The notes: a model not told the origin generated them from the sequence alone. DNA of 64,000 bases from Candidatus Stackebrandtia excrementipullorum (GCA_019113825.1 DXGR01000092.1:7978-71977), one strand, 5' to 3'; shown: positions 1-44,135, numbered from the stretch's first letter. Program-made: numbers and translations.

Positions 1-2349
1 GGGATGGACCACGCCGGCATTTCGACGCAGAACGTCGTTGAGCGGCAACTGGCGGGAGAGGGACTGTCCCGGCACGATCTGGGGCGGGAACGATTCATCG
101 AGAAGGTCTGGGAGTGGAAGGCCGAGTACGGCGGCCGCATCGCCGGGCAGATGCGTCGACTCGGTGACGCCGTCGACTGGGACCGCGAACGGTTCACCAT
201 GGACGAGGGCCTGTCGCGCGCGGTGCAGACCATCTTCAAGCGACTGTACGACGACGGTTTGATCTACCGCGCCGAGCGCATCATCAACTGGTGCCCTCGC
301 TGTATGACGGCGCTATCCGACATCGAGGTCGAACACACCGACGACGACGGTGAACTCGTCAGCATCCGTTACGGCTCGGGCGACTCGGCGATCGTGGTGG
401 CCACGACGCGTGCGGAGACGATGCTTGGCGACACCGCGGTCGCCGTGCACCCCGACGACGAACGCTATGCGCACCTGATCGGCACCGAGGTCGAGCTCCC
501 GTTGACGGGACGCCGGATCCCCGTGATCGCCGACGAGCACGTCGACCCCGAGTTCGGGACAGGCGCCGTCAAGGTGACGCCCGCTCACGACCCCAACGAC
601 TTCGAGATCGGTCGGCGCCACGACCTTCCCGTGCTGGTCGTCATGGACGAGCGCGGAAACATCACCGCGCACGGACCGTTCGAAGGGCTTGATCGTTTTG
701 AGGCCCGCCCCGCGGTCGTGGAGGCGCTGCGTGCCGAGGGACGCATCGTGGACGAGAAACGTCCCTATGTGCATGCGGTGGGACACTGTGACCGCTGCGG
801 CACCACCGTTGAGCCTAGGTTGAGCAAGCAGTGGTTCGTGAAGGTGGAGAGCCTCGCTCAGGCCGCCGGCGACGCCGTGCGCGACGGAAAGGTGCGTATC
901 CACCCGCCCGAACAGGAAAGGCGTTACTTCTCCTGGGTCGACAACATCCACGACTGGTGTATTTCACGTCAACTGTGGTGGGGGCACCGGATACCGATCT
1001 TCTACGGCCCCGACGGCGACGTCGTGTGCGTCGGACCGGACGAGACACCGCCGGCCGGATACACGCAGGACTCAGACGTCCTCGACACGTGGTTCTCCTC
1101 CGCCCTGTGGCCGTTTTCGACGCTGGGGTGGCCGGACCGGACCGCCGCCCTGAAGAAGTTCTATCCGAACACCGTCCTGTCCACCGGTTACGACATCCTG
1201 TTCTTCTGGGTCGTGCGGATGATGATGTTCGGTATCTACGCGATGGACGAACCGCCGTTTGCCGACGTGTTCCTCCACGGGTTGATCCGTGACGATCAGG
1301 GCCGCAAAATGTCCAAATCCAAGGGCAACGGGGTCGATCCGTTGGACGTCATGGACGCGTACGGCAGCGACGCCCTGCGGTTTTTCCTGGCGCACAACAC
1401 GACGCCGGGTGGGGACCTGGTGGTCAACGACGAATGGATCCAGGGCTCACGTAACTTCTGCAACAAGCTGTGGAACGCGAGCCGCTTCGCCCTGATGTCG
1501 GGGGCGACGGTCGAGGGGCCACTGCCGACGGAGTTGTCCACCGTTGATCAGTGGATCCTGTCTCGGCTGTCGCGCACAATCGCCGAAGTCGACGAGCACT
1601 ACGAGCGTTTCGAGTTCGCGAAGATGGCGGATGCGCTCTACCACTTCGCGTGGGACGACGTGTGCGACTGGTACCTGGAACTGACCAAGCCGGTCCTCGC
1701 CGCCGGTGGTGCTGAAGCCGATGCGACACGACGCGTCCTCGGGCACGTGCTCGACAACCTTTTGAGGCTGCTGCACCCCGTCGTTCCGTTCATCACCGAG
1801 GAACTCTGGCTGGCCTTGACCGGTGGCGAGGAACGCGGCGAGTCGATCATGGTGACGTCGTGGCCGCAGCAGTCCGAAACTCACGAGCAGGCGGAGGAAA
1901 CGGTCGCCGCGTTGCAGCATCTGGTCACCGAGATCCGGCGGTTCCGCGCCGACCAGGGTCTTCGGCCGGGTCAACGTGTCGCCACGGCGCTCAACGGCCT
2001 CGACAAGATGGGTTTGACCGAGCATGAAACCCTGATCCGTTCGTTGGCGCGCTTGGAGCAGCCGGGCGACGATTTCACCGCCACGGCGACCGTGGCCGTC
2101 ACCGACGATGTGACGGCACAGCTCGACACGCGGGGAACGATCAACGTCGCCGCCGAGCGCGCTCGTTTGGAGAAGGCGTTGGCGGTGGCACGCAAGGAGC
2201 TGGACGGCACCTCCAAAAAGCTCTCGAACGATGCTTTCCTCGCCAAGGCTCCTGAGGAGGTCGTGGCGAAGATCCGCGACCGCCGGACGTCGGCCGAGGC
2301 CGACCTTGCCCGGGTTACCGCACAGCTGGAAGCTCTTCCGACCGCGTGA
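1..2349 (+). CDS. valS: Valyl-tRNA synthetase (5'-partial, runs off window start)
   Basis: DHAGIATQ-like start, editing domain, [29 protein letters not shown] motif, C-terminal coiled-coil arm; precedes folC. Confidence 0.98.
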
Positions 2350-2353
2350 CGTC

Positions 2354-2383
2354 GACGGCGGCGGGTCTTCTCCCGCCGCCGTC
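2354..2383 (+). terminator. Hairpin after valS
   Basis: Perfect 12-bp stem gacggcggcggg / cccgccgccgtc with 6-nt loop, 4 nt after the stop codon. Confidence 0.7.
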
Positions 2384-2466
2384 ACCTATGTCACCGTCGA
2401 AGTCGCTGCAGGCGACGCAGCCGTACCATTGACCGGTCCCTTTCATGCGCACGACCTGGAGCTTTC

Positions 2467-3810
2467 GTGACCACGCCCGAAGAATATGCCGAGTACTACG
2501 CTGTCGAAGCCGCGCTTCAGGCACGCGGATACACCCGGGTCAACTTCGACATGAATCGGATCAAGCGGCTCCTGGAGCTGCTGGGTGATCCGCATAAGAC
2601 GTTTCGGGCGGTGCATGTCACCGGCACCAACGGCAAAACCTCGATGGCGCGGTTGACCGAGTCGCTGTTGCGGGCTCACGGTCTACGGACCGGGCGTTTC
2701 ACGAGCCCACATCTGGACGAGGCGCGGGAACGTGTCAGCGTCGACGGGGAACCGATCAGTCCGGAACGCTTCGTCGCTGCTTTCGGCGAGGTCGCTCCGT
2801 TGGCCGCCATGGTCGACGCGGAGTTCGACGAACCGTTGACGTATTTCGAGGTGATGACCGCGCTGGCATTCGCGGCCTTCGCGGATACTCCGGTAGACGT
2901 CGCCGTGGTCGAGGTCGGTGTGGGCGGCGAAACCGACGCCACGAACGTTCTATCCGCCGAGGTGGCCATGATCGGGCCCGTCGGGTTGGACCACACGCGG
3001 TGGCTGGGCGAGACGATCACCGACATCGCCACCATGAAAGCCGGAATCATTCACAAGGGCGCCAATCTGGTGACCGCGGTCCAGGACCCCGAGGCGATGA
3101 TTCCGCTTGTGGAGCGCTGTCACGCCGTCGGTGCGTCGCTGGTGGCGCAGGGCCGCAAGTTCGAGGTGCTCGATCGTAATCTCGCGGTGGGCGGCCAGGC
3201 GCTGACCATGCAGGGCCCGAGCGGCTCGGTGTACGAGAACGTTTTCGTTCCGCTCCATGGTGCGTTCCAGGCCCAAAACGCGGTCATGGCGTTGGCCGCG
3301 ACGGAGTTGATCCTCGGTGCGGGGCAGGCACGGACGTTGGATGGGGACGTGGTGGCGGAGGGCTTCGCCGCTGCAACGTCACCGGGCCGACTTGAGCGTA
3401 TGCGCACGGCTCCCACCGTCCTGATCGACTCCGCTCACAACGAACTGGGTATGAAGGCCACCGTGGCGGCCGTGTCGGAGGAGTTCGCCTTCACCCGGCT
3501 GGTCGGGTTGATCGCGATGTCGGGGGACAAGGATGTTCGCGGCATGATCGAGGCGCTGCGGCCGATCTGCGACCATCTCGTGGTTAGTCAGTCCAGTGTT
3601 GAACGGGCCATGCCGACGGCGACGTTGACCAGGTTGGCGCACGATGTCTTCGAACCTGAAGAGGTCAGTTCGTTCCCGGACCTCGCCGATGCGATCGAGG
3701 CCGCAGTCCTCTTGGCCGAGGAGGGTGAAGCGGCTTACGGAGGTGCCGGTGTACTCATCACCGGATCGGTGTATACCGCGGGCGACGCGCGAAAGATGCT
3801 GGCCCGGTAG
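2467..3810 (+). CDS. folC: Folylpolyglutamate synthase/dihydrofolate synthase
   Basis: VHVTGTNGKTS P-loop, FTSPHL, EVGVGGETDATN, DSAHN; canonical valS-folC linkage. Confidence 0.97.
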   Translation: MTTPEEYAEYYAVEAALQARGYTRVNFDMNRIKRLLELLGDPHKTFRAVHVTGTNGKTSMARLTESLLRAHGLRTGRFTSPHLDEARERVSVDGEPISPERFVAAFGEVAPLAAMVDAEFDEPLTYFEVMTALAFAAFADTPVDVAVVEVGVGGETDATNVLSAEVAMIGPVGLDHTRWLGETITDIATMKAGIIHKGANLVTAVQDPEAMIPLVERCHAVGASLVAQGRKFEVLDRNLAVGGQALTMQGPSGSVYENVFVPLHGAFQAQNAVMALAATELILGAGQARTLDGDVVAEGFAAATSPGRLERMRTAPTVLIDSAHNELGMKATVAAVSEEFAFTRLVGLIAMSGDKDVRGMIEALRPICDHLVVSQSSVERAMPTATLTRLAHDVFEPEEVSSFPDLADAIEAAVLLAEEGEAAYGGAGVLITGSVYTAGDARKMLAR

Positions 3811-3821
3811 TCGCGGCGTGG

Positions 3822-3850
3822 TGGCGTGCGCGAACACGGGTCGCACACGC
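3822..3850. terminator. Hairpin between convergent folC and Cys-rich peptide gene
   Basis: ggcgtgcgcga / tcgcacacgcc, 11-bp stem with one mismatch. Confidence 0.55.
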
Positions 3851-3867
3851 CGTCGCATCGCACGGCT

Positions 3868-4038
3868 TCAGCAGAAGCAGACGGACGAACAACCCGTGCT
3901 TGCACAGCAGGTGCGGTAACACGGGTAGGCGCAGGCGCAGTTGGGGCACGGTTCGACCCAGCAGTCCGCCGCGATCGCGGTCTGTTCGGGAACGAATCGG
4001 TTCAGGATGCGGTCGCCGATCCTGTTGAGGTACTTCAC
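3868..4038 (-). CDS. Small Cys-rich peptide (24-aa leader + 32-aa core with 10 Cys), putative RiPP/bacteriocin-like precursor
   Basis: GGAGAG RBS before GTG at 4038; MKYLNRIGDRILNRFVPEQTAIAA-DCWVEPCPNCACAYPCYRTCCASTGCSSVCFC; fills an otherwise empty gap. Confidence 0.8.
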   Translation of the reverse strand: MKYLNRIGDRILNRFVPEQTAIAADCWVEPCPNCACAYPCYRTCCASTGCSSVCFC

Positions 4039-4077
4039 GGGGCTCTCCAAACACGGGCAATTGATGGACGTCTATTT

Positions 4078-4107
4078 ATTGTCGCCCCGGAGACGTGGAA
4101 CACGCAA
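4078..4107 (-). promoter_or_regulatory. Putative sigma70-type promoter of the Cys-rich peptide gene
   Basis: TTGCGT-N18-GACAAT on the minus strand, about 40 nt upstream of the start codon. Confidence 0.4.
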
Positions 4108-4248
4108 TCGTTCCGCGCTGCCGAATTTCCACGGATTGTCCACCACAAGCGCTGTCCCACAACGATTGTGTGCTCACCAAGACGCGCGGCCGAACATCGA
4201 GTGAGGTCGGTGGCGAGCACGTCCTACCGATCGGCGACAATCGTCGGC

Positions 4249-4656
4249 ATGACCGAGCCGTCCGACGGGCAGACCAGTGAACCCGACCCCTCCGAACGCT
4301 CCGGGCTGAAAAACCCGGTTCGAGCGGTGAGGGCAATGGGCGCGTCGGTCGTGGCACTGGAATTCATCGTGCTTCTCCTGGCCTTGCTGCCACTACGCAT
4401 GCTCGGCGTACAACCGTGGGGGCTCACACTCGGGATCACCCTCGGGTGCGCCGTGGTGTGCCTCATCCTCGCCTCCCGCATGAAACACGAATGGGCCTGG
4501 ACCGGCATCGGAGTCCTTCAGGTGGTCCTTCTCGTCGCCGGCCTGCTGCACTGGATGCTCGCCGCCGTCGGCATCGTCTTCGGGGTGACGTGGCTTTACG
4601 CAATGTCGGTTAAACGCCAGCTGTCGCGCCCACCGGTGCGCGACACCGACGGCTGA
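4249..4656 (+). CDS. DUF4233 family membrane protein
   Basis: Four hydrophobic segments, terminal WLYAMSVKRQL; usual position after folC in actinobacteria. Confidence 0.85.
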   Translation: MTEPSDGQTSEPDPSERSGLKNPVRAVRAMGASVVALEFIVLLLALLPLRMLGVQPWGLTLGITLGCAVVCLILASRMKHEWAWTGIGVLQVVLLVAGLLHWMLAAVGIVFGVTWLYAMSVKRQLSRPPVRDTDG

Positions 4657-5273
4657 AGCACAAGCGGGCACCACGTCGTCTCACGGGCGGCCGACGGCGT
4701 CGACACCGCGAGGCCGTCCGGTTTCGCCACGACGACCACGTAAGTTGAGGAACAACGCCGGTCCGGGCATCGGCGGTAGTGGTCGACGACGTTGGCAACG
4801 AAGTCCCCGAGGCGTAGCGCCGCATCGCGAACCGTCCGTTCAAATGCTCGTACCCGATCGCCTCCCAAATGAGACAGACAATGTGGATTTACATCCCTCG
4901 CCGGGGTCGGTCATGTGGCTCATGCACCGGTTTCTCCCATGGCCACGGGCGGTGGAGGACGGGGTAGGTGTGCCGCAGGCTGCTTGACCGCGATGGCGCG
5001 GATGGTCGCCGATTGGTCGGTCTCGCGCGCATGGAACTCGATGCTGTTAATCCTGCGAAAGAACTGTGGTCGCCCGGCCGGTCGACAGATCCCGCCGTTG
5101 TCCGTTCGTGAAAATCTCCCGCAGCGAGGCGATGACCTGCACCAAGACCGTTCTGCGACCTCCCTCTTACAGAGGGGCCTGCGGTGCAGGAGATGGCAAC
5201 ACCCGCTCCGCGCATCGTCTGCTTGATCACCGGGAAATCGGACATGCCGCGCGAAACCTCGCCCAATCAGTGA

Positions 5274-5752
5274 TCACAGGGTGACGGTCAGAACATCGTC
5301 GGTTTTCCCGTCGACGGGACCGAACCCGACCCGCAGGTATAGGTCACGGGCACGGTTTCCGGCCTCAACGCTCAGAGTGACCGCTTCCAGTTTCCGGTCC
5401 CTGGATGCAGCGAGCGCCTTGTCGACGAGCCTCGAGCCGATGCCGTGGCCCCGATAACCGGGTTTGACACATACGCTCAACTCGGGAACATCGGGCTTTA
5501 CGAATCCGTACCCGGGATCGTGCTCGGGGAGAAACAGCAGCCAAACGACGCCGACCCATCGCCCGTCGACCTCGGCGACGAAACCGAAGTCGCCTCGATC
5601 GGGTACCAGCCGCGTATAGTGCTCGAGCTTGGGTCTCCGAGGACATCGGCCGGCGAGAAACGCGGCGTCTCCCAATTCAGGTTAAGCACGGTGGCCTCCT
5701 GAAGGATCGCATCGCGGTCCGCACTCAATGGACGGTATCTCGCAGCGTTCAC
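5274..5752 (-). pseudogene. GNAT N-acetyltransferase with a 1-bp frameshift near 5631-5633
   Basis: N-terminal frame (EATVLNLNW..FSPADVLGDP) and C-terminal frame (KLEHYTRLVPDRGDFG..GYRGHGIG acetyl-CoA motif) join if one C is added to the ccc run. Confidence 0.75.
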
Positions 5753-5807
5753 AAACAGTGCCCTTCCGCTTCAAACGTTCACACCGCCGTCGGGCTGAAT
5801 GTCGCCG

Positions 5808-7361
5808 TCACAGCATCGCCGCGCCAGAAGGCGTTTTCCGTCGCACTTGCACTCCTTTGAATTCCGGGAGGCCGGTTACCGTTGAGCGCACACGCGCAGA
5901 ACACCACTTTTGTGCGTATGGACGCGCCAAGCGGAGACACGAATCTGCGACCGGGCAAAAACATACGCAACGACAACCCTTATCGTCCCGTCGGCGGGTC
6001 TGTGTTGCCGTCCACGAACACGAACCACAGATCCCGACGCGTCGTCTCAGCCCGGATAACCACCACAGGCTCAGGAACGTCGCGACTCCGATCGCCACCG
6101 CCGCCTGCGCGGTCAGCCACCATCGGATGCCGCGACGAGGCAACAGTCCGGCGACCGGTAGCAACCACACGGCGAACGGAAGGTATATCCGCTCGGCTTC
6201 GCCCACGGACAGGCCCGACACCAATGCAATGAGCACGACCACACCGATCGATGCCGGAACAACACAGAAGCGGTCACGCCGCAGCCACGCCAACGCCGCA
6301 CAGGTGGCGGGCCCTATCGCCAACGCCAGGGCCGCCGGGTTGGCGAACCAGAAATACCACGCGGGTCGATCTATCCATCCTTGACCGACCCGCACTTTCT
6401 GCGTGGCCAGGTCAAGCCCTTCAAACCAGTTGAATCCGGCGGCATACGCGGCGAGGAACAGTGCCACAACCACGATCCCACCCACGATCAGGGGACGGAT
6501 ACGTCGCTGTACGAGAACCACCGCGACCGCAAGAATGCCGATCAGAGCCAGCCCGTACGACAGAAAAAGGCTCAAACCGAGCACGAGCCCACCGGCTGCG
6601 GCGATGGCATCGCTTTCCATCCCTCGGCGGGCCGCGGCGTGCACGAGCAGGCACACCCCGATCGCGGCGAATCCGGCGAAGAACGCGTCGGCGCTGGTGG
6701 CGATCCACAACGCGGCCGGAGCGAATACGACGAACGGTGCTGCTCGACGCGCCACCGTCGCCGAGGCGAGGATCCGTGTGGCGGACAGCGTTGCCACACC
6801 TGCTGCGGCTCCCATACCGATGCACAGGACCGCGGCCGGCCCTCCACCGCCCCACCCGATACGGTCCATGATGGTGAGTAGCCCCAGGAAGCCCGGCGGG
6901 TGACCGGAAACATGAGTGGTCCACCGTGGTGGGTCCATGACGTGGTTGTTGAACTCGGCCAGAAACACCGACAGGTCGGTGACACGAGGCACGTCGTTCA
7001 GGTATTCGTAGGGTGTTGTGAGCGGTTCGGTCAGGGCGTTCGGTCCGTCCAACAGCGCCAACAGCACCGGCCAGACGACCCCGACACAGTAGACGACGAT
7101 CAGCAGCATCCGCCACGGAAGCAGTCGCGCCAGAAGCGGCCCCCACCGGATCCACAGCACCGCGGCCACCAACAGTACCGCGGTCCAGGCGTTGACGCGG
7201 ACTTCCCAATGCCCGGCAACCGGCCACGCGTCGCCCAGATGCAGGCGGTAACCGGACGCGTCCAGGTGACTTCCCCAGACGGCGCAACCGACGACCAGCG
7301 CGACGGCGACCACGACGATCGCAACGCTTATCCGACGTCGAGTCCCGGTGGAGAGCGCCAT
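5808..7361 (-). CDS. Polytopic membrane protein, GT-C glycosyltransferase-like; possible stop-codon loss
   Basis: Many TM segments, HVSGHPPG motif, E-x-ERI-x-LPF near the C terminus; hydrophilic tail after FLSLW. Confidence 0.7.
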   Translation of the reverse strand: MALSTGTRRRISVAIVVVAVALVVGCAVWGSHLDASGYRLHLGDAWPVAGHWEVRVNAWTAVLLVAAVLWIRWGPLLARLLPWRMLLIVVYCVGVVWPVLLALLDGPNALTEPLTTPYEYLNDVPRVTDLSVFLAEFNNHVMDPPRWTTHVSGHPPGFLGLLTIMDRIGWGGGGPAAVLCIGMGAAAGVATLSATRILASATVARRAAPFVVFAPAALWIATSADAFFAGFAAIGVCLLVHAAARRGMESDAIAAAGGLVLGLSLFLSYGLALIGILAVAVVLVQRRIRPLIVGGIVVVALFLAAYAAGFNWFEGLDLATQKVRVGQGWIDRPAWYFWFANPAALALAIGPATCAALAWLRRDRFCVVPASIGVVVLIALVSGLSVGEAERIYLPFAVWLLPVAGLLPRRGIRWWLTAQAAVAIGVATFLSLWWLSGLRRRVGICGSCSWTATQTRRRDDKGCRCVCFCPVADSCLRLARPYAQKWCSARVRSTVTGLPEFKGVQVRRKTPSGAAML

Positions 7362-7518
7362 GGCCACATCGTAAGTACGTGCCGTCGCACTTCGGGAACC
7401 GACAGACCGGTTCAGAGGGTTTTAACCGCCGTGTCGGCGACTCGAAGTACGAAGCAAGCCGACAATCAGGGTGTCGGCCTGCTTCGATGGTTCGAGCTCT
7501 ACGGCGAGATCACGCGGG

Positions 7519-8475
7519 TCAGGTCCCCGGTATCTCGACGGCGTCACCGAGGATTTCGTCTGCGGCACTGTACGGGTCGATGTCGGCGGTGGCGACCCGT
7601 TCGGAGATCTCGTCGGTGACGACGTGGCGTCGCGCCAACGCACCGAGCACAATCGCCGAAATCTCGGCCTTCGCACGTTCACGACGCCGACGATCCAGTT
7701 CACCGTGCTCGGCAAGCCAGTCACGGTGTTTGTCCACGGCCTCGATGAGTTCATCGATGCCCTCGCCACGGTGGGCGACGGTTTTGACGATGGGTTGACG
7801 CCACTCGTTGGGTTCACGCGTGACGAGAGCCATCATCGAACGGATGTCCCGCAGTGTCGCGTCCGCACCGTCCCGATCGGACTTGTTGATCACGAACACA
7901 TCGGCGACCTCGAGGATCCCGGCCTTGACGGCCTGAATGCCGTCACCCATGCCGGGAGCCAACAGAACCAACGTGGTGTCCGCCAGCCCCGCAATGTCCA
8001 CCTCGGCTTGCCCGACGCCGACGGTCTCGATCAGGATCACATCGAAACCGGAGGCTTCCAGGACCCTCAGGACCTGCGGTGTCGCTGCTGCGAGACCACC
8101 CAGGTGACCGCGCGAGGACATCGATCGGATGAACACCTCGGGATCGAGGGCGTGCTCCTGCATGCGCACCCGGTCACCGAGAATCGCGCCCCCGGTGAAC
8201 GGGCTCGACGGGTCGACGGCCAGGACGGCCACCCTAAGGCCCTGCTTGCGGTAGCCGGTTACCAGGGCGGTCGTCGTGGTCGATTTGCCGACGCCGGGCG
8301 AGCCGGTCAACCCGATCACCCGCGCGGCACGGTGCACCACGGGAAGGGCGGCAGCGACCTGACGTACCTGCGCCCCACCGTTTTCCACCAATGTGATCAG
8401 ACGTCCCAAAGCCCGCTGATCGCCCTCTTTGGCGCGGTCGGCGAGTTCGACGACGGCCTCATCGCTTCGAGTCAA
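7519..8475 (-). CDS. meaB: Methylmalonyl-CoA mutase-associated GTPase
   Basis: GLTGSPGVGKST, VDPSSPFTGGAILGDRVRM, ETVGVGQ, NKSD. Confidence 0.96.
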   Translation of the reverse strand: MTRSDEAVVELADRAKEGDQRALGRLITLVENGGAQVRQVAAALPVVHRAARVIGLTGSPGVGKSTTTTALVTGYRKQGLRVAVLAVDPSSPFTGGAILGDRVRMQEHALDPEVFIRSMSSRGHLGGLAAATPQVLRVLEASGFDVILIETVGVGQAEVDIAGLADTTLVLLAPGMGDGIQAVKAGILEVADVFVINKSDRDGADATLRDIRSMMALVTREPNEWRQPIVKTVAHRGEGIDELIEAVDKHRDWLAEHGELDRRRRERAKAEISAIVLGALARRHVVTDEISERVATADIDPYSAADEILGDAVEIPGT

Positions 8476-8479
8476 CGGC

Positions 8480-9673
8480 CTACACCCTCAGCAGCAGTGC
8501 GTCGCCCTGACCGCCGCCACCACACAGGGCGGCGGCGCCCAGGCCCCCACCACGGTGCTTGAGTTCGTGCGCCAAGGTCAGAACAAGACGAGCACCGGAC
8601 GCTCCGATGGGGTGCCCCAACGCGATCGCGCCGCCGTTGGGGTTGACGATCTCGGGATCGACCCCCAGGTCCTTGGTGGACTGGATACCGACCAAGGCGA
8701 ACGCCTCGTTGATTTCGATGACCGACAGGTCGGAGACCTCGTCACCGCTCTTGGCCAGTGCGGCCTTGATCGCGTTGCTCGGCTGGGAGTGCAGCGAACT
8801 GTCGGGGCCTGCGACCTGACCGTAGGCGACGATCTCGGCGAGGTATTCGAGACCGAGTTCCTCGGCCTTGGCCTTGCTCATGACGACGACGGCAGTCGCA
8901 CCGTCGGAGATCGGCGACGAGTTGCCGGCCGTGATGGTGCCGTCCTTGGCGAACGCGGGACGTAGTCTGCCCAGCACGTCCGTGTTCGTGTCGGCGCGCA
9001 CGCCTTCATCGGCTGCCACCGTGATCGGGTCGCCCTTACGCTGCGGGATTTCCAGGGGAGCGATCTCACGATCAAACCGGCCGTCTTTTTGGGCGGCGGC
9101 GGCGCGCGCGTGGCTTCGCGCGGCGAACTCGTCCTGCTCGGTGCGGCTGATACCCAACCGGCTGCTGTGGTTCTCGGTCGCCTCGCCCATCGGGATCTCG
9201 TCCCACGGGTCGGTCAGGCCATCAAGAGCCATGTGGTCGGATACGGTGACGTCGCCGTACTTGTACCCCTTGCGCTGCCCTGTCAGCAGGTGTGGCGCAC
9301 CGGTCATGGACTCCATACCACCGGCCACGGCGATGTCGATCTCGCCGGCGCGGATGAGCTGGTCGGCCAAGGCTATCGAGTTGAGGCCCGACAGGCACAC
9401 CTTGTTGACGTTGATGGCGGGGACACTCATGGGGATACCGGCCCCGACCGCAGCCTGACGTGCCGGGATCTGGCCGGCACCCGCCTGCAGTACCTGGCCC
9501 ATAATCACGTATTCGACCTGGTCAGGAGAAACACCGGCACGTTCGAGCGCCGCGGAAATCGCGTGCGCACCAAGTTTCGTGGCCGGGAGGTTTCCCAGCG
9601 CACCAAGCAACTTTCCGTTCGGGGTTCGGGCTCCGGCCACCAGGACGCTGGTGGTACGGGTGTCGGCTGCCAT
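8480..9673 (-). CDS. Acetyl-CoA C-acetyltransferase (thiolase)
   Basis: NKVCLSG catalytic Cys, [19 protein letters not shown]; usual meaB-thiolase-mce cluster. Confidence 0.96.
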
Positions 9674-9778
9674 GTTCGAGACCTCCAGATGAGTTTTCAC
9701 GCTCGCGCGCCGCCTGCTCGCAACTCGTCGTCGCATGCCGGCTGCACTACCAGGTTCACTTAAGCAAGACTAAGGGGC

Positions 9779-10207
9779 GTGACTGAAGTATCGCCCGTTG
9801 GGCTACTCGCTGTCGACCACGTCGGGATCGCCGTACCGGACCTGGCCGAGGCCGTCCGGTTTTACGAGGAGACCCTGGGCGGGCGCTGCGTACACGTGGA
9901 ACGAAACGAAGAACAAGGTGTCGAAGAGGCCATGGTCGCCTTTGGCGACGGAGGTACTCGCATCCAGCTGTTGGCACCGCTGTCTGCGGAGTCGACCATC
10001 GCGAAGTTCATCGGGCGCAACGGCCCCGGGCTTCAACAGTTGGCCTTCACCGTGGCCGATATCACCATGGCCTGCGAGTCGCTACGCGCCCAAGGCCTGC
10101 GGCTGCTCTACGACGCACCGAAACGTGGGACGTCGAACTCCCGCATCAACTTCGTGCACCCGAAGGACGCGGGTGGCGTATTGATCGAGTTGGTCGAACC
10201 GGCTTGA
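9779..10207 (+). CDS. mce: Methylmalonyl-CoA epimerase
   Basis: VDHVGIAV, IQLLAPL, GPGLQQLA, FVHPKDAGGVLIELVE. Confidence 0.96.
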   Translation: MTEVSPVGLLAVDHVGIAVPDLAEAVRFYEETLGGRCVHVERNEEQGVEEAMVAFGDGGTRIQLLAPLSAESTIAKFIGRNGPGLQQLAFTVADITMACESLRAQGLRLLYDAPKRGTSNSRINFVHPKDAGGVLIELVEPA

Positions 10208-10293
10208 CGGTGAGACGTGTGGCTTGAGTATCGGCCCTTGGACGACATAAGCCTTCTTCCGGTGCGTCAAACGCCCCGGTGAACATGGAGGTC

Positions 10294-10467
10294 GCGTCGG
10301 CGAAAGACCCGGCATCGGTACGCACGCGACGATCGAAAGAACCCAGACACCGAACGTGCCGGGCAGCCACCCCAGACTGCCCGGCACTCCCCCCGGTTTG
10401 GTTCACTCGCCCGCGTCGACTAAGGCTGGTAAACGGTGATCCGTTCTTCGCCTCGGTAACGCTGCGT
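10294..10467 (-). ncRNA. Candidate rod-shaped non-coding RNA (about 170-250 nt)
   Basis: Lies downstream of a near-consensus promoter, has no credible ORF, and shows nested complementary segments around the 11-bp core stem 10356-10366/10377-10387. Folded by eye only. Confidence 0.45.
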
Positions 10468-10474
10468 ATCTAGA

Positions 10475-10502
10475 ACTTTACTCTGCGGATTCGTCATGTC
10501 AA
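10475..10502 (-). promoter_or_regulatory. Near-consensus housekeeping promoter
   Basis: TTGACA (10502-10497), 16 nt, TAAAGT (10480-10475), with an AT-rich upstream tract. Confidence 0.65.
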
Positions 10503-10587
10503 GCGAATGGCGAGAAATTCGAGAAAAAGTTTTGAAGACCCGCCCGTACGATCAGCCACGGTCCGCCAAAGGTAATCCGGCATCACG

Positions 10588-11784
10588 TCACCGACCAGCA
10601 CCGACACCGGCACAGTAGCTCTCGCCGGTACCGGTGGTGAACACCTTCCCCACACCTGCCGGAATAAACGCGCCTTGGCCGGGTCGAAGCGTCAAAGAAC
10701 GCTCTCCGTCGTCGATCCGGAGGTCCCCCGACCAACAGAGGATGATCATGGCGCCCTCGGAATGCAGCTCCTGCTCCGTCACCTCATCGTCGAGCCGAAG
10801 GCGCCACAAGGCGAACTCCGGCACCGGAACCGACCATTGACGGAGACCCGGCGTGGGTTCGACGGCGGGGAAACGCGGCTCCGCCATCACCTCGAAACGC
10901 AGGACACGCAGCAGCTCCGGCACGTCCACGTGCTTGTCGGTCAACCCTCCGCGCAACACGTTGTCACTGGCGGCCATGACCTCGATGCCGACGCCACCCA
11001 GGTACGCGTGGAGATTGCCGGCCGGCATGTAGATGGCGTCGCCCGGCTCGAGGAAGAGATGATTGAGTAGCAACGCGACCAGGGCACCCGAGTCGTGCGG
11101 GTACCGAGTGCCCAGGCGGACCACCATCGCGTAGTCGGCCGCGTCGGGCCCCGCCTCGGCGAGGTCGGTCGCGGACGCCACCGCCGCAGCGACCAGCCGG
11201 GTGCGGTGATCAACCGGCAGTGTCAACAGCGTGGTCATCGCCTCGCGCAACGCCTGCGCCTCGTCATCCTGCCTGAGAACGGCGACCAGGCAGGACAGCT
11301 CGTCAACCTTGAGACGTTCGATCGCGTCGGCGGCTTCGGACGGGGGTCGGAATCCACACAGGGCTTCGAACCGGGTAACCGCACACAGCAGTTCGGGCTT
11401 GTGGTGGACGTCGACATACGACCGTTGCGGCGCGTCGAGAGGGACCCCTTCACGCGTCTGACGTGCGAAGCCGTCGGCGGCCTGCTCGCTGTCCGGGTGG
11501 GCCTGGAGTGACAGCGGCTCCTGAGCAGCCAACACCTTCAGCAAGAACGGCAGCCGCTGCCCGTACCGTTCCAGGGAGTCGGTGCCCAACGTCATCACCG
11601 GGTCGGCCGAGATCAGGTCGGCCAGCGACCTTCCGTCCTCAAGCATCGCGGGGTCGCGAGGGTGATCACCAAGCCACAACTCCGCTTCGGGCCGCTGCGT
11701 CGGCTCCGGTCGACCCTGCAAAGCAGCGATCGCACTGTGCGACCCCCATGCATACGGACGGATGGCTCCGTGAAGGAGTTCCAC
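10588..11784 (-). CDS. manA: Mannose-6-phosphate isomerase, class I
   Basis: YAWGS, AELWLGDHP, PLSLQAHP, HKPEL, HAYL, EVMAASDNVLRGGLT; GGGAG RBS before GTG 11784. Confidence 0.96.
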   Translation of the reverse strand: MELLHGAIRPYAWGSHSAIAALQGRPEPTQRPEAELWLGDHPRDPAMLEDGRSLADLISADPVMTLGTDSLERYGQRLPFLLKVLAAQEPLSLQAHPDSEQAADGFARQTREGVPLDAPQRSYVDVHHKPELLCAVTRFEALCGFRPPSEAADAIERLKVDELSCLVAVLRQDDEAQALREAMTTLLTLPVDHRTRLVAAAVASATDLAEAGPDAADYAMVVRLGTRYPHDSGALVALLLNHLFLEPGDAIYMPAGNLHAYLGGVGIEVMAASDNVLRGGLTDKHVDVPELLRVLRFEVMAEPRFPAVEPTPGLRQWSVPVPEFALWRLRLDDEVTEQELHSEGAMIILCWSGDLRIDDGERSLTLRPGQGAFIPAGVGKVFTTGTGESYCAGVGAGR

Positions 11785-11990
11785 GCTGACCAGTCTCCCT
11801 TGAATCGAAAGGTCACATCTTGAAATGGCCGCAGCCAGGCCTACCAGGCCCATGAATCTACCGGTCGACCAAAAATCTTAAATCGGGCAGAATGGTATAT
11901 AACCGGCTTTTCATCAACCGTCAGAGGTCGGTGGAGGGAACCGAAACCCGAAAATGGGTGATCACCCTCAAGGGGCACCCCGGGTATTAC

Positions 11991-12021
11991 ACGGCACCCG
12001 GGGCTAAGCCTCGGGTGCCGT
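11991..12021 (-). terminator. Hairpin after SIS-domain gene
   Basis: acggcacccggggc / gcctcgggtgccgt, 14-bp stem with one mismatch. Confidence 0.6.
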
Positions 12022-12034
12022 GTCGTTCGACATG

Positions 12035-13237
12035 TCAGGACGGAGTGGTCAAATCCAGATATTGCTTCATCTCGGCCACGGCGGGCACCGACATCGGGTC
12101 AAGGCCATGCGCCAACGCCAGATACACGGATGCGAAGTCCGGCACCGCAATCAACGAGGCGAGTCTCTCCAACGCACAACCGCCTTCAGCCGAAACGATG
12201 TCCAGGCGGATTCCACGACGCTCCGCAAGCTCGGCGACCGCGTCGGCCCGACGCGTGTCCGGTGGAGGAGCGGTGTCGTCCCCGTCGAGGCCGTCGTCAC
12301 GAAGCAGGATGATGCGAAGTCGAGTCCCAGAACCGCCGCCCTCGTCCGGGTCGGCGAAGATGTCGCGGCGACTCTCGGCCAGTGAACCGAACGCACCGTC
12401 CAGAAGTCCGACGCGACCACGGCCCACCTCCCCAAGCTCACCGGCCAAGACGGGGTAACGCGCATTTGCCGCGAGAGTGTCACCGAACCGGCGGGCGGCG
12501 ATGCCAGCCAGCGCCGTGCCACCCCACACGACCGGGACCGACCCCGCGATGTCCAATGCCATCGATTTGGCGGGGTTGACGAATGCATCGTTGCCGGGCT
12601 TACAACGTTCCGCGTCGGCGTCCAGACGAGCCGCCGTCTCGGCGATGTCGGCTTCGGCGATGCGCACCATTCCACATGCGCGACCGGCCAGCAGAACCGG
12701 AACCGTCAACGCCCACAGGCTCATCCGGGCGGGTGCACGCCTCGGCACGCCGATGTACGGCGCACGGGCGCTTCGGGCGACCGACTCCAACGGCGAATCG
12801 GGTGCGCCGACCGCGACCAGCCGCGCACCACGCCGCGCTGCGGCTTCGGCAGCCGCCAGCGCCTCAGGGCTACGTCCCGACGCGGACACGGCGATCACGA
12901 CATCGGCGGCGCCGACCCACCCGGGCACACCGGCGTTGCGGTGAGCGACCACCGGGACCGGACAGTTGGGGCCCGCGACGGTGGCGAGGATGTCACCGGT
13001 ACGGGCAGCGGTGCCGACACCCGCCACCACCACGGCGCGTGGCCGGCCTCCGTCGGCGAGAGAGGCGAGATCGGCCTCGGCGGCCAACGCTCCCGCCTCC
13101 CGAAGCTGAGGTCCCGCCGCTGCCGTCGCCAGGAGAGCTCCCCCCGGGTCGGCCGCGATCACCTTCTCCTCGGTGTCGATACGTTCGGGGTCTACGAGGC
13201 GGTCACCGGCCGCCTCCGAACGGTCTGCTCCGTTCAT
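12035..13237 (-). CDS. SIS-domain protein (bifunctional phosphoglucose/phosphomannose isomerase-like)
   Basis: VIAVSASGRSPE SIS motif, NPAKSMA, DFASVYLA; conserved position between Trm112 and manA. Confidence 0.85.
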   Translation of the reverse strand: MNGADRSEAAGDRLVDPERIDTEEKVIAADPGGALLATAAAGPQLREAGALAAEADLASLADGGRPRAVVVAGVGTAARTGDILATVAGPNCPVPVVAHRNAGVPGWVGAADVVIAVSASGRSPEALAAAEAAARRGARLVAVGAPDSPLESVARSARAPYIGVPRRAPARMSLWALTVPVLLAGRACGMVRIAEADIAETAARLDADAERCKPGNDAFVNPAKSMALDIAGSVPVVWGGTALAGIAARRFGDTLAANARYPVLAGELGEVGRGRVGLLDGAFGSLAESRRDIFADPDEGGGSGTRLRIILLRDDGLDGDDTAPPPDTRRADAVAELAERRGIRLDIVSAEGGCALERLASLIAVPDFASVYLALAHGLDPMSVPAVAEMKQYLDLTTPS

Positions 13238-13419
13238 CGGTCACCCTCACCGGCCATACGGGCCTCGTCAAGCAGCAAAACAGGTATCCCGTTGTCGATC
13301 CTGAACACACGGCGACACTCCTGGCAGGTCAGTGTCTGTGCCCGTGCGTCGTACTCCAACGGAGCATGATGCGTGTCAGGGCAGGCCAATACTTCCAGGA
13401 GCGTGGCGTCCAATGGCAT
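13234..13419 (-). CDS. Trm112 family protein
   Basis: LLEVLACP..C..C.R.FRIDNGIPVLLLDEA; start/stop overlap with the SIS gene. Confidence 0.92.
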   Translation of the reverse strand: MPLDATLLEVLACPDTHHAPLEYDARAQTLTCQECRRVFRIDNGIPVLLLDEARMAGEGDR

Positions 13420-13443
13420 GTGGTCTTGCCTCTCGTCTACTCG

Positions 13444-14796
13444 TCAACGACGGATACGGTCGAGTACCTCATCACGCAGCTGTGACATGCGTTCGGCGGT
13501 GGCGGCTTCGGCATTGAGTCGCAGCAGCGGCTCGGTGTTGGACGGACGAAGGTTGAACCACGCCCCGTCCTCAAAGGTGACGGTCAGCCCGTCCATGCGG
13601 TCGGTTTGGACGCCGTCGCCGCGATAATGCTCTTCAACGGCGTCGACGACGGCGGCCTGATCGGTCACGGTGGAGTTGATCTCGCCAGAGGAGTGGTACC
13701 GGTTGTACCCGGTGACCAGCTCCGACAGCGGCTTGTCGACCGCTCCGAGCGCGGCCAACACGTACATGGCGGCCAACATCCCGGTGTCCGCGAACCAGAA
13801 GTCGCGGAAGTAGTAATGGGCGGAGTGCTCACCGCCGAACACCGCTCCGGTCGCGGCCATCTCCGCCTTGATGTAGGAATGTCCCACTCGGGAGCGGACC
13901 GGTTTACCACCGGCTTCGGCCACGATTTCGGGTACGGCTTTCGAGGTGATCAGGTTGTGGATGACCGTCGCGCCGGGATGCTTGGCAAGTTCGGCTTCGG
14001 CAACCAACGCGGTGACTGCGCTGGGCGAGACGGGCTCGCCTCGCTCGTCGACGACGAAGCACCTGTCGGCGTCACCGTCGAAGGCCAACCCCAGGTCGGC
14101 ACCGGTTTCACGGACTTTGGCCTGTAGGTCGACGATGTTGGACGGTTCCAACGGATTGGCCTCGTGGTTCGGGAAGGTCCCGTCGAGTTCGAAGTACATC
14201 GGGATGACCCGGGCGGGGGTGCGCTTGTCCAAAACGGCGGGGACGGTGTGCCCGGCCATGCCGTTGCCGGCGTCGACGACCACGGTCAACGGACGGATCC
14301 GCGAAAGATCTACCAACGAATGCAGGTGGTCGGCGTACTCGGTGAGGTAATCGCCAACCGTGATGGAGCCGGGTTCATCGGCCAACGGCGCGAGTTCACC
14401 GTCCAAAATCGCCTGCGCCCGGTCACGAATGCGATCCAACCCGGAATCGATACTGACCGGCTTCGCGCCGGGCAGACACAGCTTGATCCCGTTGTACCGA
14501 GCCGGGTTGTGGCTTGCGGTGAACATGGCGCCCGCCACGTCGTGTCTGCCACTGACGAAGTACACCTGGTCGGTCGAACACAGGCCCGCATCGATGACCT
14601 CCGCTCCCGCGTCGCCCGCGGCCTGCGCAAACGCTGCCGCCAGTGATACTCCCGATTCCCGCATGTCGCGGCCGACCACGATGCGACGTTGACCGGTCTC
14701 GAGCACGAAAGCCCGCCCCAGTGCAGCGGCAACGGCCTCGTCCCACTGGTCGGGCACCACCCCGCGAATGTCGTACGCCTTGACGATGTCCTTCAT
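13444..14796 (-). CDS. manB: Phosphomannomutase/phosphoglucomutase
   Basis: KAYDIRG, TASHNP phosphoserine loop, DGDADR, GGEHSAH, RPSNTEP. Confidence 0.96.
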   Translation of the reverse strand: MKDIVKAYDIRGVVPDQWDEAVAAALGRAFVLETGQRRIVVGRDMRESGVSLAAAFAQAAGDAGAEVIDAGLCSTDQVYFVSGRHDVAGAMFTASHNPARYNGIKLCLPGAKPVSIDSGLDRIRDRAQAILDGELAPLADEPGSITVGDYLTEYADHLHSLVDLSRIRPLTVVVDAGNGMAGHTVPAVLDKRTPARVIPMYFELDGTFPNHEANPLEPSNIVDLQAKVRETGADLGLAFDGDADRCFVVDERGEPVSPSAVTALVAEAELAKHPGATVIHNLITSKAVPEIVAEAGGKPVRSRVGHSYIKAEMAATGAVFGGEHSAHYYFRDFWFADTGMLAAMYVLAALGAVDKPLSELVTGYNRYHSSGEINSTVTDQAAVVDAVEEHYRGDGVQTDRMDGLTVTFEDGAWFNLRPSNTEPLLRLNAEAATAERMSQLRDEVLDRIRR

Positions 14797-14931: not shown

Positions 14932-15351
14932 TCACGGATCACCCTCGGGCTCGGGCAGCCGCCGACCGGGATGCTGGCTCCCGACCACACGTAGATGCGG
15001 CCGCCCCGATGTCCCCCGGTCACCGGGCGCTCCGGGCCGTCGAGGAGGAGACACCTGCTCGGAAGCCTGCTCCGGTTTAGACCGGGCCGCCTCCCGTACG
15101 GCGTCGGCCAAGGCGACAAGATCGTCGCCCGACGGCATCGGTGTCGAATAGTCGTCGACATGGCGCACCAGCTGCCAACCGCGCGGTGCGGTCAGCTTCC
15201 GAGCATGTTCCTCACACAGGTCGTAGGTGTGCGGCTCCTGCGTGGTCGCCAACGGACCGACCACAGCGGTCGAATCGATGTAGACATACGTCAACGTGGC
15301 CACCGCGCTCTGTCGGCAGCCGTTCCGGGAACAGCGTCGATGCGATCTCAC
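14932..15351 (-). CDS. DUF3499 family protein
   Basis: RCSRNGC..AVATLTYVY, YDLCEEHA..LTAPRGW, C-terminal PHLRVV. Confidence 0.92.
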   Translation of the reverse strand: MRSHRRCSRNGCRQSAVATLTYVYIDSTAVVGPLATTQEPHTYDLCEEHARKLTAPRGWQLVRHVDDYSTPMPSGDDLVALADAVREAARSKPEQASEQVSPPRRPGAPGDRGTSGRPHLRVVGSQHPGRRLPEPEGDP

Positions 15352-15535
15352 GGCCGGAACGCTATCGCTGTCGCGCCGTCGGCGGTACCCGATATGTGTC
15401 CGACACGCCGAGGGCGGCAGCCGCGCCGCGCCCGGAAGCCGTTTGGTTCGATCATGTTGACCAACCTCCCAAGGTCATGACACTCCAGGCGGCCGGTTGT
15501 GGATAGTCACCGGCCACTCCCCTACGCTAGTCCGC

Positions 15536-43381: not shown

Positions 43382-43702
43382 GTGAGCACGATGTATGACA
43401 ACTCGCCGGATTTTCACGCCGCCGAGCGGCGGCACAGCACCCGCGACAGACAAACCGAGGACGCGCGGCGCCGTCGCCGGGACGGCAGCGAGCCCATGCG
43501 GGCGAAATCGCTGCCACCGCGAACGAAGTCCATGTTCGCGCTGGCAGCGCTGATATTCAACGGTGCCCTGGCGGTGTTGGCATACCTGGCCGGGTTCACC
43601 GTCGCCGCCGTCATCCTGGCGGTGATCGCCGTGGCCATGCTGGTCGATCTTGCTTGGCAGGGCCACAAAATCCGTAAAGAGAAACGTGCCGGGCGGCTGT
43701 GA
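43382..43702 (+). CDS. Small 2-TM membrane protein (DUF6343-like)
   Basis: GGAGG RBS; GSEPMRAKS.. followed by two TM helices and a basic tail. Confidence 0.7.
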   Translation: MSTMYDNSPDFHAAERRHSTRDRQTEDARRRRRDGSEPMRAKSLPPRTKSMFALAALIFNGALAVLAYLAGFTVAAVILAVIAVAMLVDLAWQGHKIRKEKRAGRL

Positions 43703-43755
43703 CGGCCGTTCGACGACCACCCGGTTCGCCAGGTGCCGAAAGAAGGGGAGGAAGC

Positions 43756-44085
43756 ATGCCTCAAGCGGCGTGGAACAAGAAGCGTGAGCGTCAATACGAA
43801 CATGTCAAGGACAGCGAAAAGAAGCAGGGCCGCAGCGACCGACGTGCCGAGGAGATCGCCGCTCGCACGGTGAACAAGGAACGCGCCCGTAGCGGCGAAT
43901 CCCGAACCTCGAGCCGCAGCTCCACCAAGGACATCTCCTCGGGCAGGCGTGGCGGCAAACGGTCCGGTTCGGAACCGGGTGGTCGCACGCGCGACCAGCT
44001 GTACAACGAGGCCCGCCAGAAGAACGTCAAGGGGCGCTCGAAGATGTCGAAGGCGGAGCTGGAGAAGGCCGTCGGTCGGCGATGA
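43756..44085 (+). CDS. Small basic protein (often labelled plasmid-stabilisation or Rho N-terminal-like protein)
   Basis: KKRERQYEHVKDS, EEIAARTVNKERAR.GE, TRDQLYNEARQKNVKGRSKMSKAEL. Confidence 0.88.
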   Translation: MPQAAWNKKRERQYEHVKDSEKKQGRSDRRAEEIAARTVNKERARSGESRTSSRSSTKDISSGRRGGKRSGSEPGGRTRDQLYNEARQKNVKGRSKMSKAELEKAVGRR

Positions 44086-44087
44086 TG

Positions 44088-44131
44088 CGTGTGTCGCGGT
44101 GACACCGGTGTCGGTGTCACCGCGACACACG
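44088..44131. terminator. Bidirectional hairpin between convergent genes
   Basis: Perfect 20-bp stem cgtgtgtcgcggtgacaccg / cggtgtcaccgcgacacacg with 4-nt loop. Confidence 0.85.
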
Positions 44132-44135
44132 ATCG

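Follow-up and report, generated by a model that had tools for sequence, protein, structure and literature searches.

An orphan gene for a cysteine-rich precursor peptide between folC and DUF4233 in Candidatus Stackebrandtia excrementipullorum

Our analysis of a 64,000-nucleotide stretch of DNA from Candidatus Stackebrandtia excrementipullorum (GCA_019113825.1, DXGR01000092.1:7978-71977; hereafter the window, with all positions counted from its first letter) indicates that a small open reading frame (ORF) between folC and a DUF4233 gene is very probably a genuine, selected gene of a family of Cys-rich precursor peptides. Positions 3868..4038 are best explained as a small functional gene that has a promoter and a ribosome-binding site of its own. 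By its leader, which carries the family residues D9, P17, A21 and A23, and by a core with an even number of Cys residues, the window gene is a member of this family, and more specifically it is a new orphan subfamily member of a predicted, uncharacterised class. The gene and the two parts of its product are as follows.

3868..4038, minus strand: precursor gene, 56 codons and a TGA stop (3870..3868), with a GTG start at 4038, from the ORF listing and translation
3970..4038, minus strand: leader, residues 1-23 (MKYLNRIGDRILNRFVPEQTAIA), an amphipathic helix followed by a cleavage-type site, P17-x3-A21-x-A23
3871..3969, minus strand: core, residues 24-56 (ADCWVEPCPNCACAYPCYRTCCASTGCSSVCFC), with 10 Cys whose positions are kept in orthologues and paralogues

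The gene and the selection acting on it

The ORF, whose 56-residue product is MKYLNRIGDRILNRFVPEQTAIAADCWVEPCPNCACAYPCYRTCCASTGCSSVCFC, is present where a first-pass annotation made from the sequence alone had placed it, on the minus strand between folC (2467..3810, plus strand) and the DUF4233 gene (4210 or 4249..4656, plus strand; identified by Pfam, E = 4e-19). It is convergent with the former and divergent from the latter. An alternative TTG start at 4050 would give a product of 60 residues; the start sites of homologues align with the window GTG at 4038 on the minus strand. In the frame of the ORF the G+C content by codon position is 0.46/0.60/0.83, and the third-position value (GC3, 0.825) agrees, in the leader as well as in the core, with the 0.71-0.83 of the neighbouring genes. 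Small-ORF callers had been expected to miss the gene; in the event the identical 56-residue product had already been called on five metagenome contigs (L001-L005), which share more than 98.7% DNA identity with the window, belong to the same species and are uninformative for selection. Scans of the peptide against Pfam and NCBIfam gave zero matches even at an E-value of 10, no paralogue of it was found within the window, and neither Rfam nor tRNA scans had any match in the window.

Selection on the frame can be read from two other lineages in which the same gap between folC and DUF4233 is occupied. A relative represented by a 403-kb metagenome scaffold (L008), whose FolC and ValS are 86% and whose DUF4233 protein is 62% identical to those of the window, holds two tandem copies there, P0002 (56 residues, 65% identical to the window peptide) and P0004 (51 residues), and a third lineage (L036-L038) holds one copy, P0010. 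Relative to P0002, 19 of the 56 codons differ non-synonymously and 12 synonymously, with ORF length and stop kept, and the ratio of non-synonymous to synonymous rates (dN/dS) is 0.19 at a dS of about 1.1, being 0.25 in the leader and 0.15 in the core. All ten Cys codons are retained, two of them through TGT/TGC changes. The core of this orthologue pair is under purifying, not diversifying, selection. The first-pass annotation had asked for homologues conserving leader and Cys positions and for purifying selection on the Cys codons, and both were found. The sole single-nucleotide polymorphism in the ORF of the strain seen in an RNA run, 3955 G>A, is synonymous.

The signals around the gene, and the point at which RNA assemblies end upstream of it, are these.

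4043..4048, minus strand: Shine-Dalgarno sequence GGAGAG, 4 nt before the GTG, read from the sequence
4078..4083, minus strand: -10-like hexamer GACAAT, read from the sequence and aligned to CATAAT and CATACT of the orthologues
4102..4107, minus strand: -35-like hexamer TTGCGT, 18 nt from the -10 hexamer, read from the sequence
3823..3851, no strand assigned: hairpin with an 11-bp stem between the convergent folC and precursor genes, 3' of both, from RNA folding
4051..4051, no strand assigned: end of the RNA contigs of runs X9 and X10, both of which stop there

The ribosome-binding site proposed in the first-pass annotation is thus in place, and its GGAGA is invariant in four aligned upstream regions of the family. 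The -35 hexamers of the orthologues, TTGTGC and TTGTGG (L008, L036), stand 17 nt from the -10, compared with 18 nt in the window, and GGAGA, the -10 and a -35 of the form TTGyGy align across three orthologous loci in upstream DNA that is otherwise poorly conserved. The hairpin downstream is a possible bidirectional terminator. The lone terminator call of a consensus promoter scan lies inside the ORF and was disregarded. We also note an A+T-rich patch, ATTTATTGT, at 4074..4082 in the region between the precursor and DUF4233 genes, which is unusual for a genome of 65% G+C.

DNA of the window was found in metagenomes of chicken-gut, farm, manure, bovine and food-production origin, and in two metatranscriptome runs, X9 and X10, an RNA-derived contig spans valS, folC and the entire small ORF. 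The ORF region therefore occurs in RNA, as the first-pass annotation had required of an expressed gene, with the coverage coming from unstranded assemblies. The contig end at 4051 lies 13 nt upstream of the GTG and takes in the Shine-Dalgarno sequence. Over the divergent intergenic region (4052..4268) RNA coverage is absent in both runs while DNA runs cover the gap fully, and the RNA contigs of DUF4233 start at 4269 and 4317. These ends fit a minus-strand 5' end near 4051-4072. Over 14 kb the depth of the RNA contigs changes from gene to gene, as is to be expected of RNA, and these gene-wise differences imply that the organism was transcriptionally active in the samples, which are labelled "whole organism metagenome". 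The depths over window positions 1..14000 are about 25-65 for valS-folC and meaB-thiolase, about 9-12 for DUF4233 and about 3-4 for the GNAT gene and a gene for a 519-residue membrane protein.

A family with a fixed leader and even-cysteine cores

An exhaustive phmmer search over 1.84 billion representatives yielded six small homologues of the window peptide, and a word-indexed search started from this one peptide recovered nothing but the query. Profile searches led to 73 protein clusters, all of them named "hypothetical protein" or nameless; the E-values of the phmmer and profile matches within the family run from 1e-8 to 1e-21. The phmmer matches P0003 and P0006 were set aside as long repeat proteins matching through low-complexity stretches. 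A degenerate DNA pattern of the leader, made by hand (no stretch of the family alignment A1 was conserved enough for a locus search), matched only known copies locally and gave 20 true loci in species-representative genomes; two of its 22 matches, L021 and L030, have cores that are not Cys-rich and were discarded as false positives. In all, 85 or more peptides belong to the family, spread over Glycomycetales, Micromonosporales, Streptosporangiales and Streptomyces, and its genera are Stackebrandtia, Phytomonospora, Actinorhabdospora, Actinoplanes, Dactylosporangium, Virgisporangium, Catenuloplanes, Rhizomonospora, Planomonospora, Acrocarpospora, Actinomadura and Streptomyces. The P0005 cluster, close to the window peptide, comes from Candidatus Stackebrandtia excrementipullorum, and the window core is of the Glycomycetales type, DCW...CC...GC..C.C.

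What holds the family together is the N-terminal part. Over the at least 85 peptides the first 23 residues are conserved and the cores are hypervariable, which bears out the division into leader and core that had been proposed. In the alignments A1 and A2 the residues N5, D9, P17, A21 and A23 are invariant, and the invariant columns are seen again in a third alignment, A3; in an alignment of 71 leaders the D, the P and both A residues are invariant (71/71) and N5 is the majority residue (37/71). The consensus is M-x3-N-(R/K)-L-(A/G)-D-R-(L/V/M)-L-x-(R/K)-(L/V)-(A/V)-P-x3-A-x-A, over 23-24 residues. The window leader had been described as amphipathic, non-Sec and ending at an AxA site, and this description holds: its hydrophobic moment is 0.75, its mean hydrophobicity is -0.24, it carries the charged residues R6, D9, R10, R14 and E18, and it ends in A-I-A. 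A Sec signal needs an uncharged hydrophobic h-region of 7-15 residues, and a Tat signal an RR motif in addition. Such an h-region is lacking from this charged, amphipathic leader and we rejected a Sec/Tat signal peptide; its c-region alone is signal-peptide-like, having P at -7 and A both at -3 and at -1.

The window core has the Cys spacing C-x4-C-x2-C-x-C-x3-C-x3-CC-x4-C-x3-C-x-C, so that 10 Cys fall within 32-33 residues, compared with at most 7 in any other open 32-residue stretch of the six frames of the 64-kb window. The first-pass annotation had both the spacing and the number of Cys exactly right; its core length of 32 residues becomes 33 (A24..C56), because the invariant site of the family is A21-x-A23. 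The number of Cys is 4, 6, 8 or 10 in 85 of 85 family cores (73 are database proteins, 9 were taken from loci and 3 come from the literature) and odd in none. Over the 22 core types, obtained by single-linkage grouping, such parity would have a probability of about 2e-7 if the counts were random, and within any core type the number of Cys shifts only by two. We read this rule, from the sequences, as the signature of obligatory Cys-Cys pairing, and it lends strong support to the earlier description of the peptide as disulfide-rich.

Changes within the window subfamily suggest which residues may pair. The subfamily scaffold has eight Cys, C-x4-C-x3-C-x3-CC-x4-C-x3-C-x-C, to which the window peptide and P0002 add an extra pair, C34 and C36. 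P0005 is without the second and seventh Cys and P0009 is without the third and eighth. Taken from these two sequences, the paired losses point to C31-C54 and C40-C56 (window numbering) as possible disulfides, and the pairs so implied, CII-CVII and CIII-CVIII, would differ from the cystine-knot pattern. An AlphaFold 2 (AF2) model built from a 13-sequence alignment has three short beta strands in the core, at residues 26-30, 41-45 and 49-55, with a predicted local distance difference test (pLDDT) score of 70-84 in the core and below 55 in the leader. Foldseek comparison of the model with the PDB gave no match with an E-value below 8, and a search of PDB sequences with the family profile gave no meaningful match. 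The defensin-like or knottin-like fold put forward in the first-pass annotation is therefore not supported by these data, and the resemblance is one of analogy.

Elsewhere in the window a 519-residue protein with multiple transmembrane (TM) segments (5808..7367, minus strand), which has no Pfam or NCBIfam family, has a C-terminal tail (about 5808..6060) with 7 Cys in 32 residues, where GCRCVCFC resembles the C-terminal GCSSVCFC of the peptide. One strain seen in an RNA run has an in-frame 3-nt insertion at 6050/6051, in this tail.

Neighbourhoods, maturation and rival explanations

Clustering of neighbouring ORFs followed by Pfam assignment identified four recurrent partners of the precursors: small S26 signal peptidases (PF10502; 74-81 bits against TIGR02227, whose cut-off is 47), ABC exporters of about 600 residues with ABC_membrane and ABC_tran domains and without a peptidase domain, thioredoxin-fold proteins that carry CxxC and have a membrane helix at the N terminus (Redoxin/AhpC-TSA), and MauE/DoxX proteins (PF07291). 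Regulators of the SARP or XRE type are frequent near the precursors. At least one partner lies inside the 8-kb block at 12 or more loci (L012, L014, L016, L017, L018, L020, L022, L025, L027, L028, L029 and L031), a lower bound, as the precursor does not lie at the middle of the blocks; adjacency is frequent and not universal in the family. The association of such leaders with MauE/DoxX, thioredoxin, S26 and ABC exporter genes, which the first-pass annotation had put forward, is in this way confirmed by Pfam beside the precursors. The S26 peptidase appears to be the most tightly linked partner. In Actinoplanes sp. NPDC049548 (L012:5587-6772) at least five tandem 4-Cys precursors, with consecutive locus tags AB0J80_27780-27805, lie directly upstream of S26 and MauE genes, and the leaders of this array are nearly identical and its cores diverged.

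The window itself lacks these genes, as had been noted: a tblastn and hidden Markov model (HMM) search of it found no partner gene, which makes its precursor an orphan. Two weak matches of window ORFs (14995..15477 and 43417..44178) were considered as partner genes and dropped, neither having a Pfam family. The DUF4233 protein and a 114-residue protein with four TM segments, described below, were tried as cryptic MauE/DoxX proteins and rejected by BLASTP, Pfam and hhalign (probabilities of 5.4% and 0.8%). Orphan copies in Glycomycetales are those of the window, L008 and L036, those of a second Stackebrandtia locus, and dispersed single genes of Phytomonospora, Stackebrandtia albiflava and Actinorhabdospora. 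The second Stackebrandtia locus (L006:8928-10833; L010:1635-3499; L033/L034) has two to three tandem precursors next to DUF2470/heme oxygenase and heme-uptake genes, together with a nearly invariant, Cys-free protein of 114-115 residues with four TM segments that is transcribed divergently from the precursors. In Actinorhabdospora filicis one precursor, P0036, stands directly before an S26 peptidase gene, with a STAND/TPR regulator adjoining (L039:10001-10627), and in the same genome a second precursor (L032:6017-6205) has no partner within its 8-kb block. This pair offers a precedent for maturation in trans.

How could a precursor with no partners beside it be matured? We consider probable a composite mechanism of A-x-A cleavage, export, five disulfides and maturation in trans. 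The shared leader, being no Sec or Tat signal, would act as a recognition handle for dedicated machinery; an S26-type peptidase would cut it after A21-x-A23; an ABC exporter of the MsbA/HlyB type would export the 33-residue core (ADCW...CFC); and MauE together with a membrane-tethered CxxC thioredoxin-fold protein would support the formation of five intramolecular disulfides, a step that we attribute to this pair, by analogy, because of the MauE/MauD and SviE/SviF precedents. With five disulfides the core would have a predicted monoisotopic mass of 3505.17 Da. As no partners lie beside the window gene, its maturation would have to depend on machinery from another part of the genome. Our leading guess for the product is an antimicrobial or competition role, because hypervariable cores stand behind a fixed leader, the precursors form tandem arrays and SARP regulators lie nearby; signalling is the alternative.

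Several observations weigh against this account, some of them against the gene and others against the mechanism. The window promoter is weak, matching 7 of 12 consensus positions and falling below the threshold of the consensus scan; it is the conservation of -10, -35 and GGAGA across three orthologous loci that rescues the promoter call of the first-pass annotation. The downstream hairpin in that annotation has a real stem but an ordinary folding energy, not significant against shuffled sequences (z = -0.89 for its G+C) and without a U-tract. The RNA assemblies are unstranded, and read-through from folC could also account for the coverage of the ORF. The AF2 model is moderate (mean pLDDT 68) and fits no known fold, and S26, thioredoxin-fold and MauE genes are absent from the 64-kb window by tblastn, HMM and Pfam searches alike. 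For every member of the family, translation, cleavage, export and disulfides rest on inference, and we likewise infer the exact cleavage site, the maturation in trans and any bioactivity. Finally, the S26 and thioredoxin-fold proteins begin directly with a hydrophobic helix, which is preceded by no K/R and followed by 2-5 of them; two S26 proteins (L012, L027) are without any helix. By the positive-inside rule the catalytic domains of both may be cytoplasmic, which is unexpected for signal-peptidase-like and TlpA-like proteins, and for that reason it is uncertain in which order, and on which side of the membrane, cleavage and oxidation take place. This topology is seen in the S26 proteins of L029:3314-3793, L014:7008-7445, L020 and L025 and in the thioredoxin-fold proteins of L031:2413-2949, L014:2754-3266, L020, L022 and L028, the latter with a conserved RRLREH.

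These weak points leave room for other readings of the same data. Spurious ORFs are common in G+C-rich genomes, other frames of the window contain Cys-rich stretches, neither promoter nor terminator is significant alone and the RNA is unstranded, so the 56 codons might be an accidental open frame, lying antisense to the 3' untranslated tail of folC in DNA rich in G+C. We regard that as scarcely credible, and it is already contradicted by the comparative data: frame, length and stop survive a dS of 1.1 with a dN/dS of 0.19, the GC3 is 0.825, the leader is conserved in at least 85 homologues, and the Shine-Dalgarno sequence and promoter elements are conserved as well. If the gene is real, its product could instead be an intracellular metal-binding or redox protein, a metallothionein-like zinc or copper buffer in which the amphipathic helix is an uncleaved anchor. 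The very high Cys content with CC and CxC motifs, the orphan gene with no exporter nearby and the possibly cytoplasmic S26 and thioredoxin-fold partners would all suit such a protein, which nevertheless strikes us as quite improbable. Metal sites need no parity, whereas the count is even in 85 of 85 cores and changes in pairs; the hypervariable cores are rich in aromatic residues (W27, Y38, Y41 and F55 in the window), in which they differ from metallothioneins; an ABC exporter and a leader-type peptidase are clustered with the family; and the peptide has no Pfam or NCBIfam match. The even-Cys rule, the aromatic residues and the neighbours for export and oxidation thus tell against the metal-binding alternative named in the first-pass annotation. 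Metallothioneins proper are cytoplasmic, with metal-binding Cys clusters, no leader and few or no aromatic residues, and we rejected this class on account of the cleavable-type leader, the four aromatic residues and the even-Cys rule. Bufferins have a Sec signal, a DUF2282-type precursor and MNIO (DUF692) and DUF2063 partners; they too were rejected, the precursor being without a Pfam match and MNIO-type genes not recurring in the neighbourhoods.

A further reading, which we hold unlikely, is that the product is a more heavily modified member of the ribosomally synthesised peptides that carry post-translational modifications (RiPPs), with its Cys residues serving as modification sites for thioether, sactionine or thiooxazole cross-links made by unlinked enzymes. 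decRiPPter ranked MauE clusters as candidate RiPP classes, an orphan precursor makes unlinked modifying enzymes possible, and bufferins, which are Cys-rich and have DoxX neighbours, are reported to be open to modification at Cys. Against this, only S26, ABC, thioredoxin-fold and MauE proteins and regulators recur over the at least 12 clustered loci, radical-SAM, MNIO, LanM/LanB/LanC and YcaO proteins do not recur in those neighbourhoods, and the even-Cys rule fits Cys-Cys pairing. Returning to the disulfide mechanism, one may extend it, tentatively and with more doubt than confidence, to a bacterial family resembling the venom-peptide libraries of animals, where one leader steers hypervariable disulfide-rich cores to the S26/MauE/thioredoxin-fold/ABC machine and where, in Glycomycetales, one unlinked machine matures several dispersed orphans, including the window gene, which would have become fixed at a housekeeping locus. 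In such a machine peptidase and redox components may work at the cytoplasmic face of the membrane.

Significance and relation to known systems

Conotoxins, knottins, defensins and other disulfide-rich mini-proteins are valued as stable drug scaffolds and are poorly documented in bacteria. Here an actinomycete family is defined by its invariant leader, by the even-Cys rule and by a recurring set of four processing genes, and its leader pattern is a simple search key that comes with a testable cleavage site, a predicted mass and two predicted disulfide pairs. Orphan precursors, moreover, are a natural case for asking about trans maturation. An antimicrobial or signalling role, if true, could matter for the ecology of poultry-gut, manure and farm communities, and the venom-library-like reading, if true, would add a new class of stable bioactive mini-proteins.

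Full-text searches of the literature found no experimental study of the precursor family. The closest precedent, and the sole trace of the family met in those searches, is computational: decRiPPter (Kloosterman et al., PLoS Biol 2020, PMC7794033) predicted three candidate RiPP families in Streptomyces with mauE, one of them also with mauD, whose precursors have at least 8 Cys and which are computational predictions only. The three precursors in its supplementary table have 24-residue leaders ending LL-x-R-x-V-P-x3-A-x-A, in exact register with our family profile, and cores with 10, 8 and 8 Cys. These Streptomyces leaders differ in lacking N5 and D9 and score weakly, at 7-21 bits, against the profile, and the window gene differs from the MauE families in having another core type and no mauE neighbour. 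MauE together with the thioredoxin-like MauD is also needed for the small subunit of methylamine dehydrogenase, a short polypeptide very rich in disulfides, which has 12 Cys (summary in PMC7794033); that substrate differs in being part of an enzyme, in its long signal for periplasmic targeting and in its tryptophan tryptophylquinone (TTQ) cofactor, and other mau genes are absent here.

Class I lasso peptide clusters (sviceucin, siamycin, humidimycin) resemble the family in combining SviE (DoxX), SviF (a CxxC thioredoxin) and ABC transporters with a disulfide peptide (PMC9266682), although SviF is dispensable for disulfide formation in that system (PMC9266682). The family differs in having no lasso cyclase or B-protease, so that no macrolactam is expected, and in its leader and S26 cleavage. 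Class II or double-glycine bacteriocins likewise share with it disulfide-only or unmodified products, a conserved amphipathic non-Sec leader, a variable core and a dedicated ABC exporter. In its proposed mode of working the window gene resembles bacteriocins that are leader-guided, ABC-exported and stabilised by disulfides. They differ at the cleavage site, which here is A-x-A (A-I-A in the window) and not G-G, and in the processing proteins, here an ABC protein without C39 and a separate S26 peptidase; with the GG/GA/GS motif and the C39 domain both absent, we rejected a double-glycine-leader bacteriocin. SodX, the S26 peptidase of nickel superoxide dismutase (NiSOD) maturation, offers another parallel as a small dedicated S26 enzyme acting on the short leader of one specific substrate. 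The S26 proteins of our clusters match the model TIGR02754 below its cut-off and pass the general signal peptidase I model; SodX differs in its unrelated substrate. The NiSOD leader protease is cytoplasmic, and the likeness of the S26 proteins to it, below the cut-off, bears on the question of the membrane side raised above.

Conotoxins, knottins and defensins resemble the family in their conserved pre/pro region, hypervariable even-Cys cores and central CC doublet; the likeness is analogy only, and the searches revealed no sequence or detectable fold relationship to the window peptide. The organisation that a venom-library-like family would have in Glycomycetales would be similar to the prochlorosin system, where many scattered precursors are served by one enzyme.

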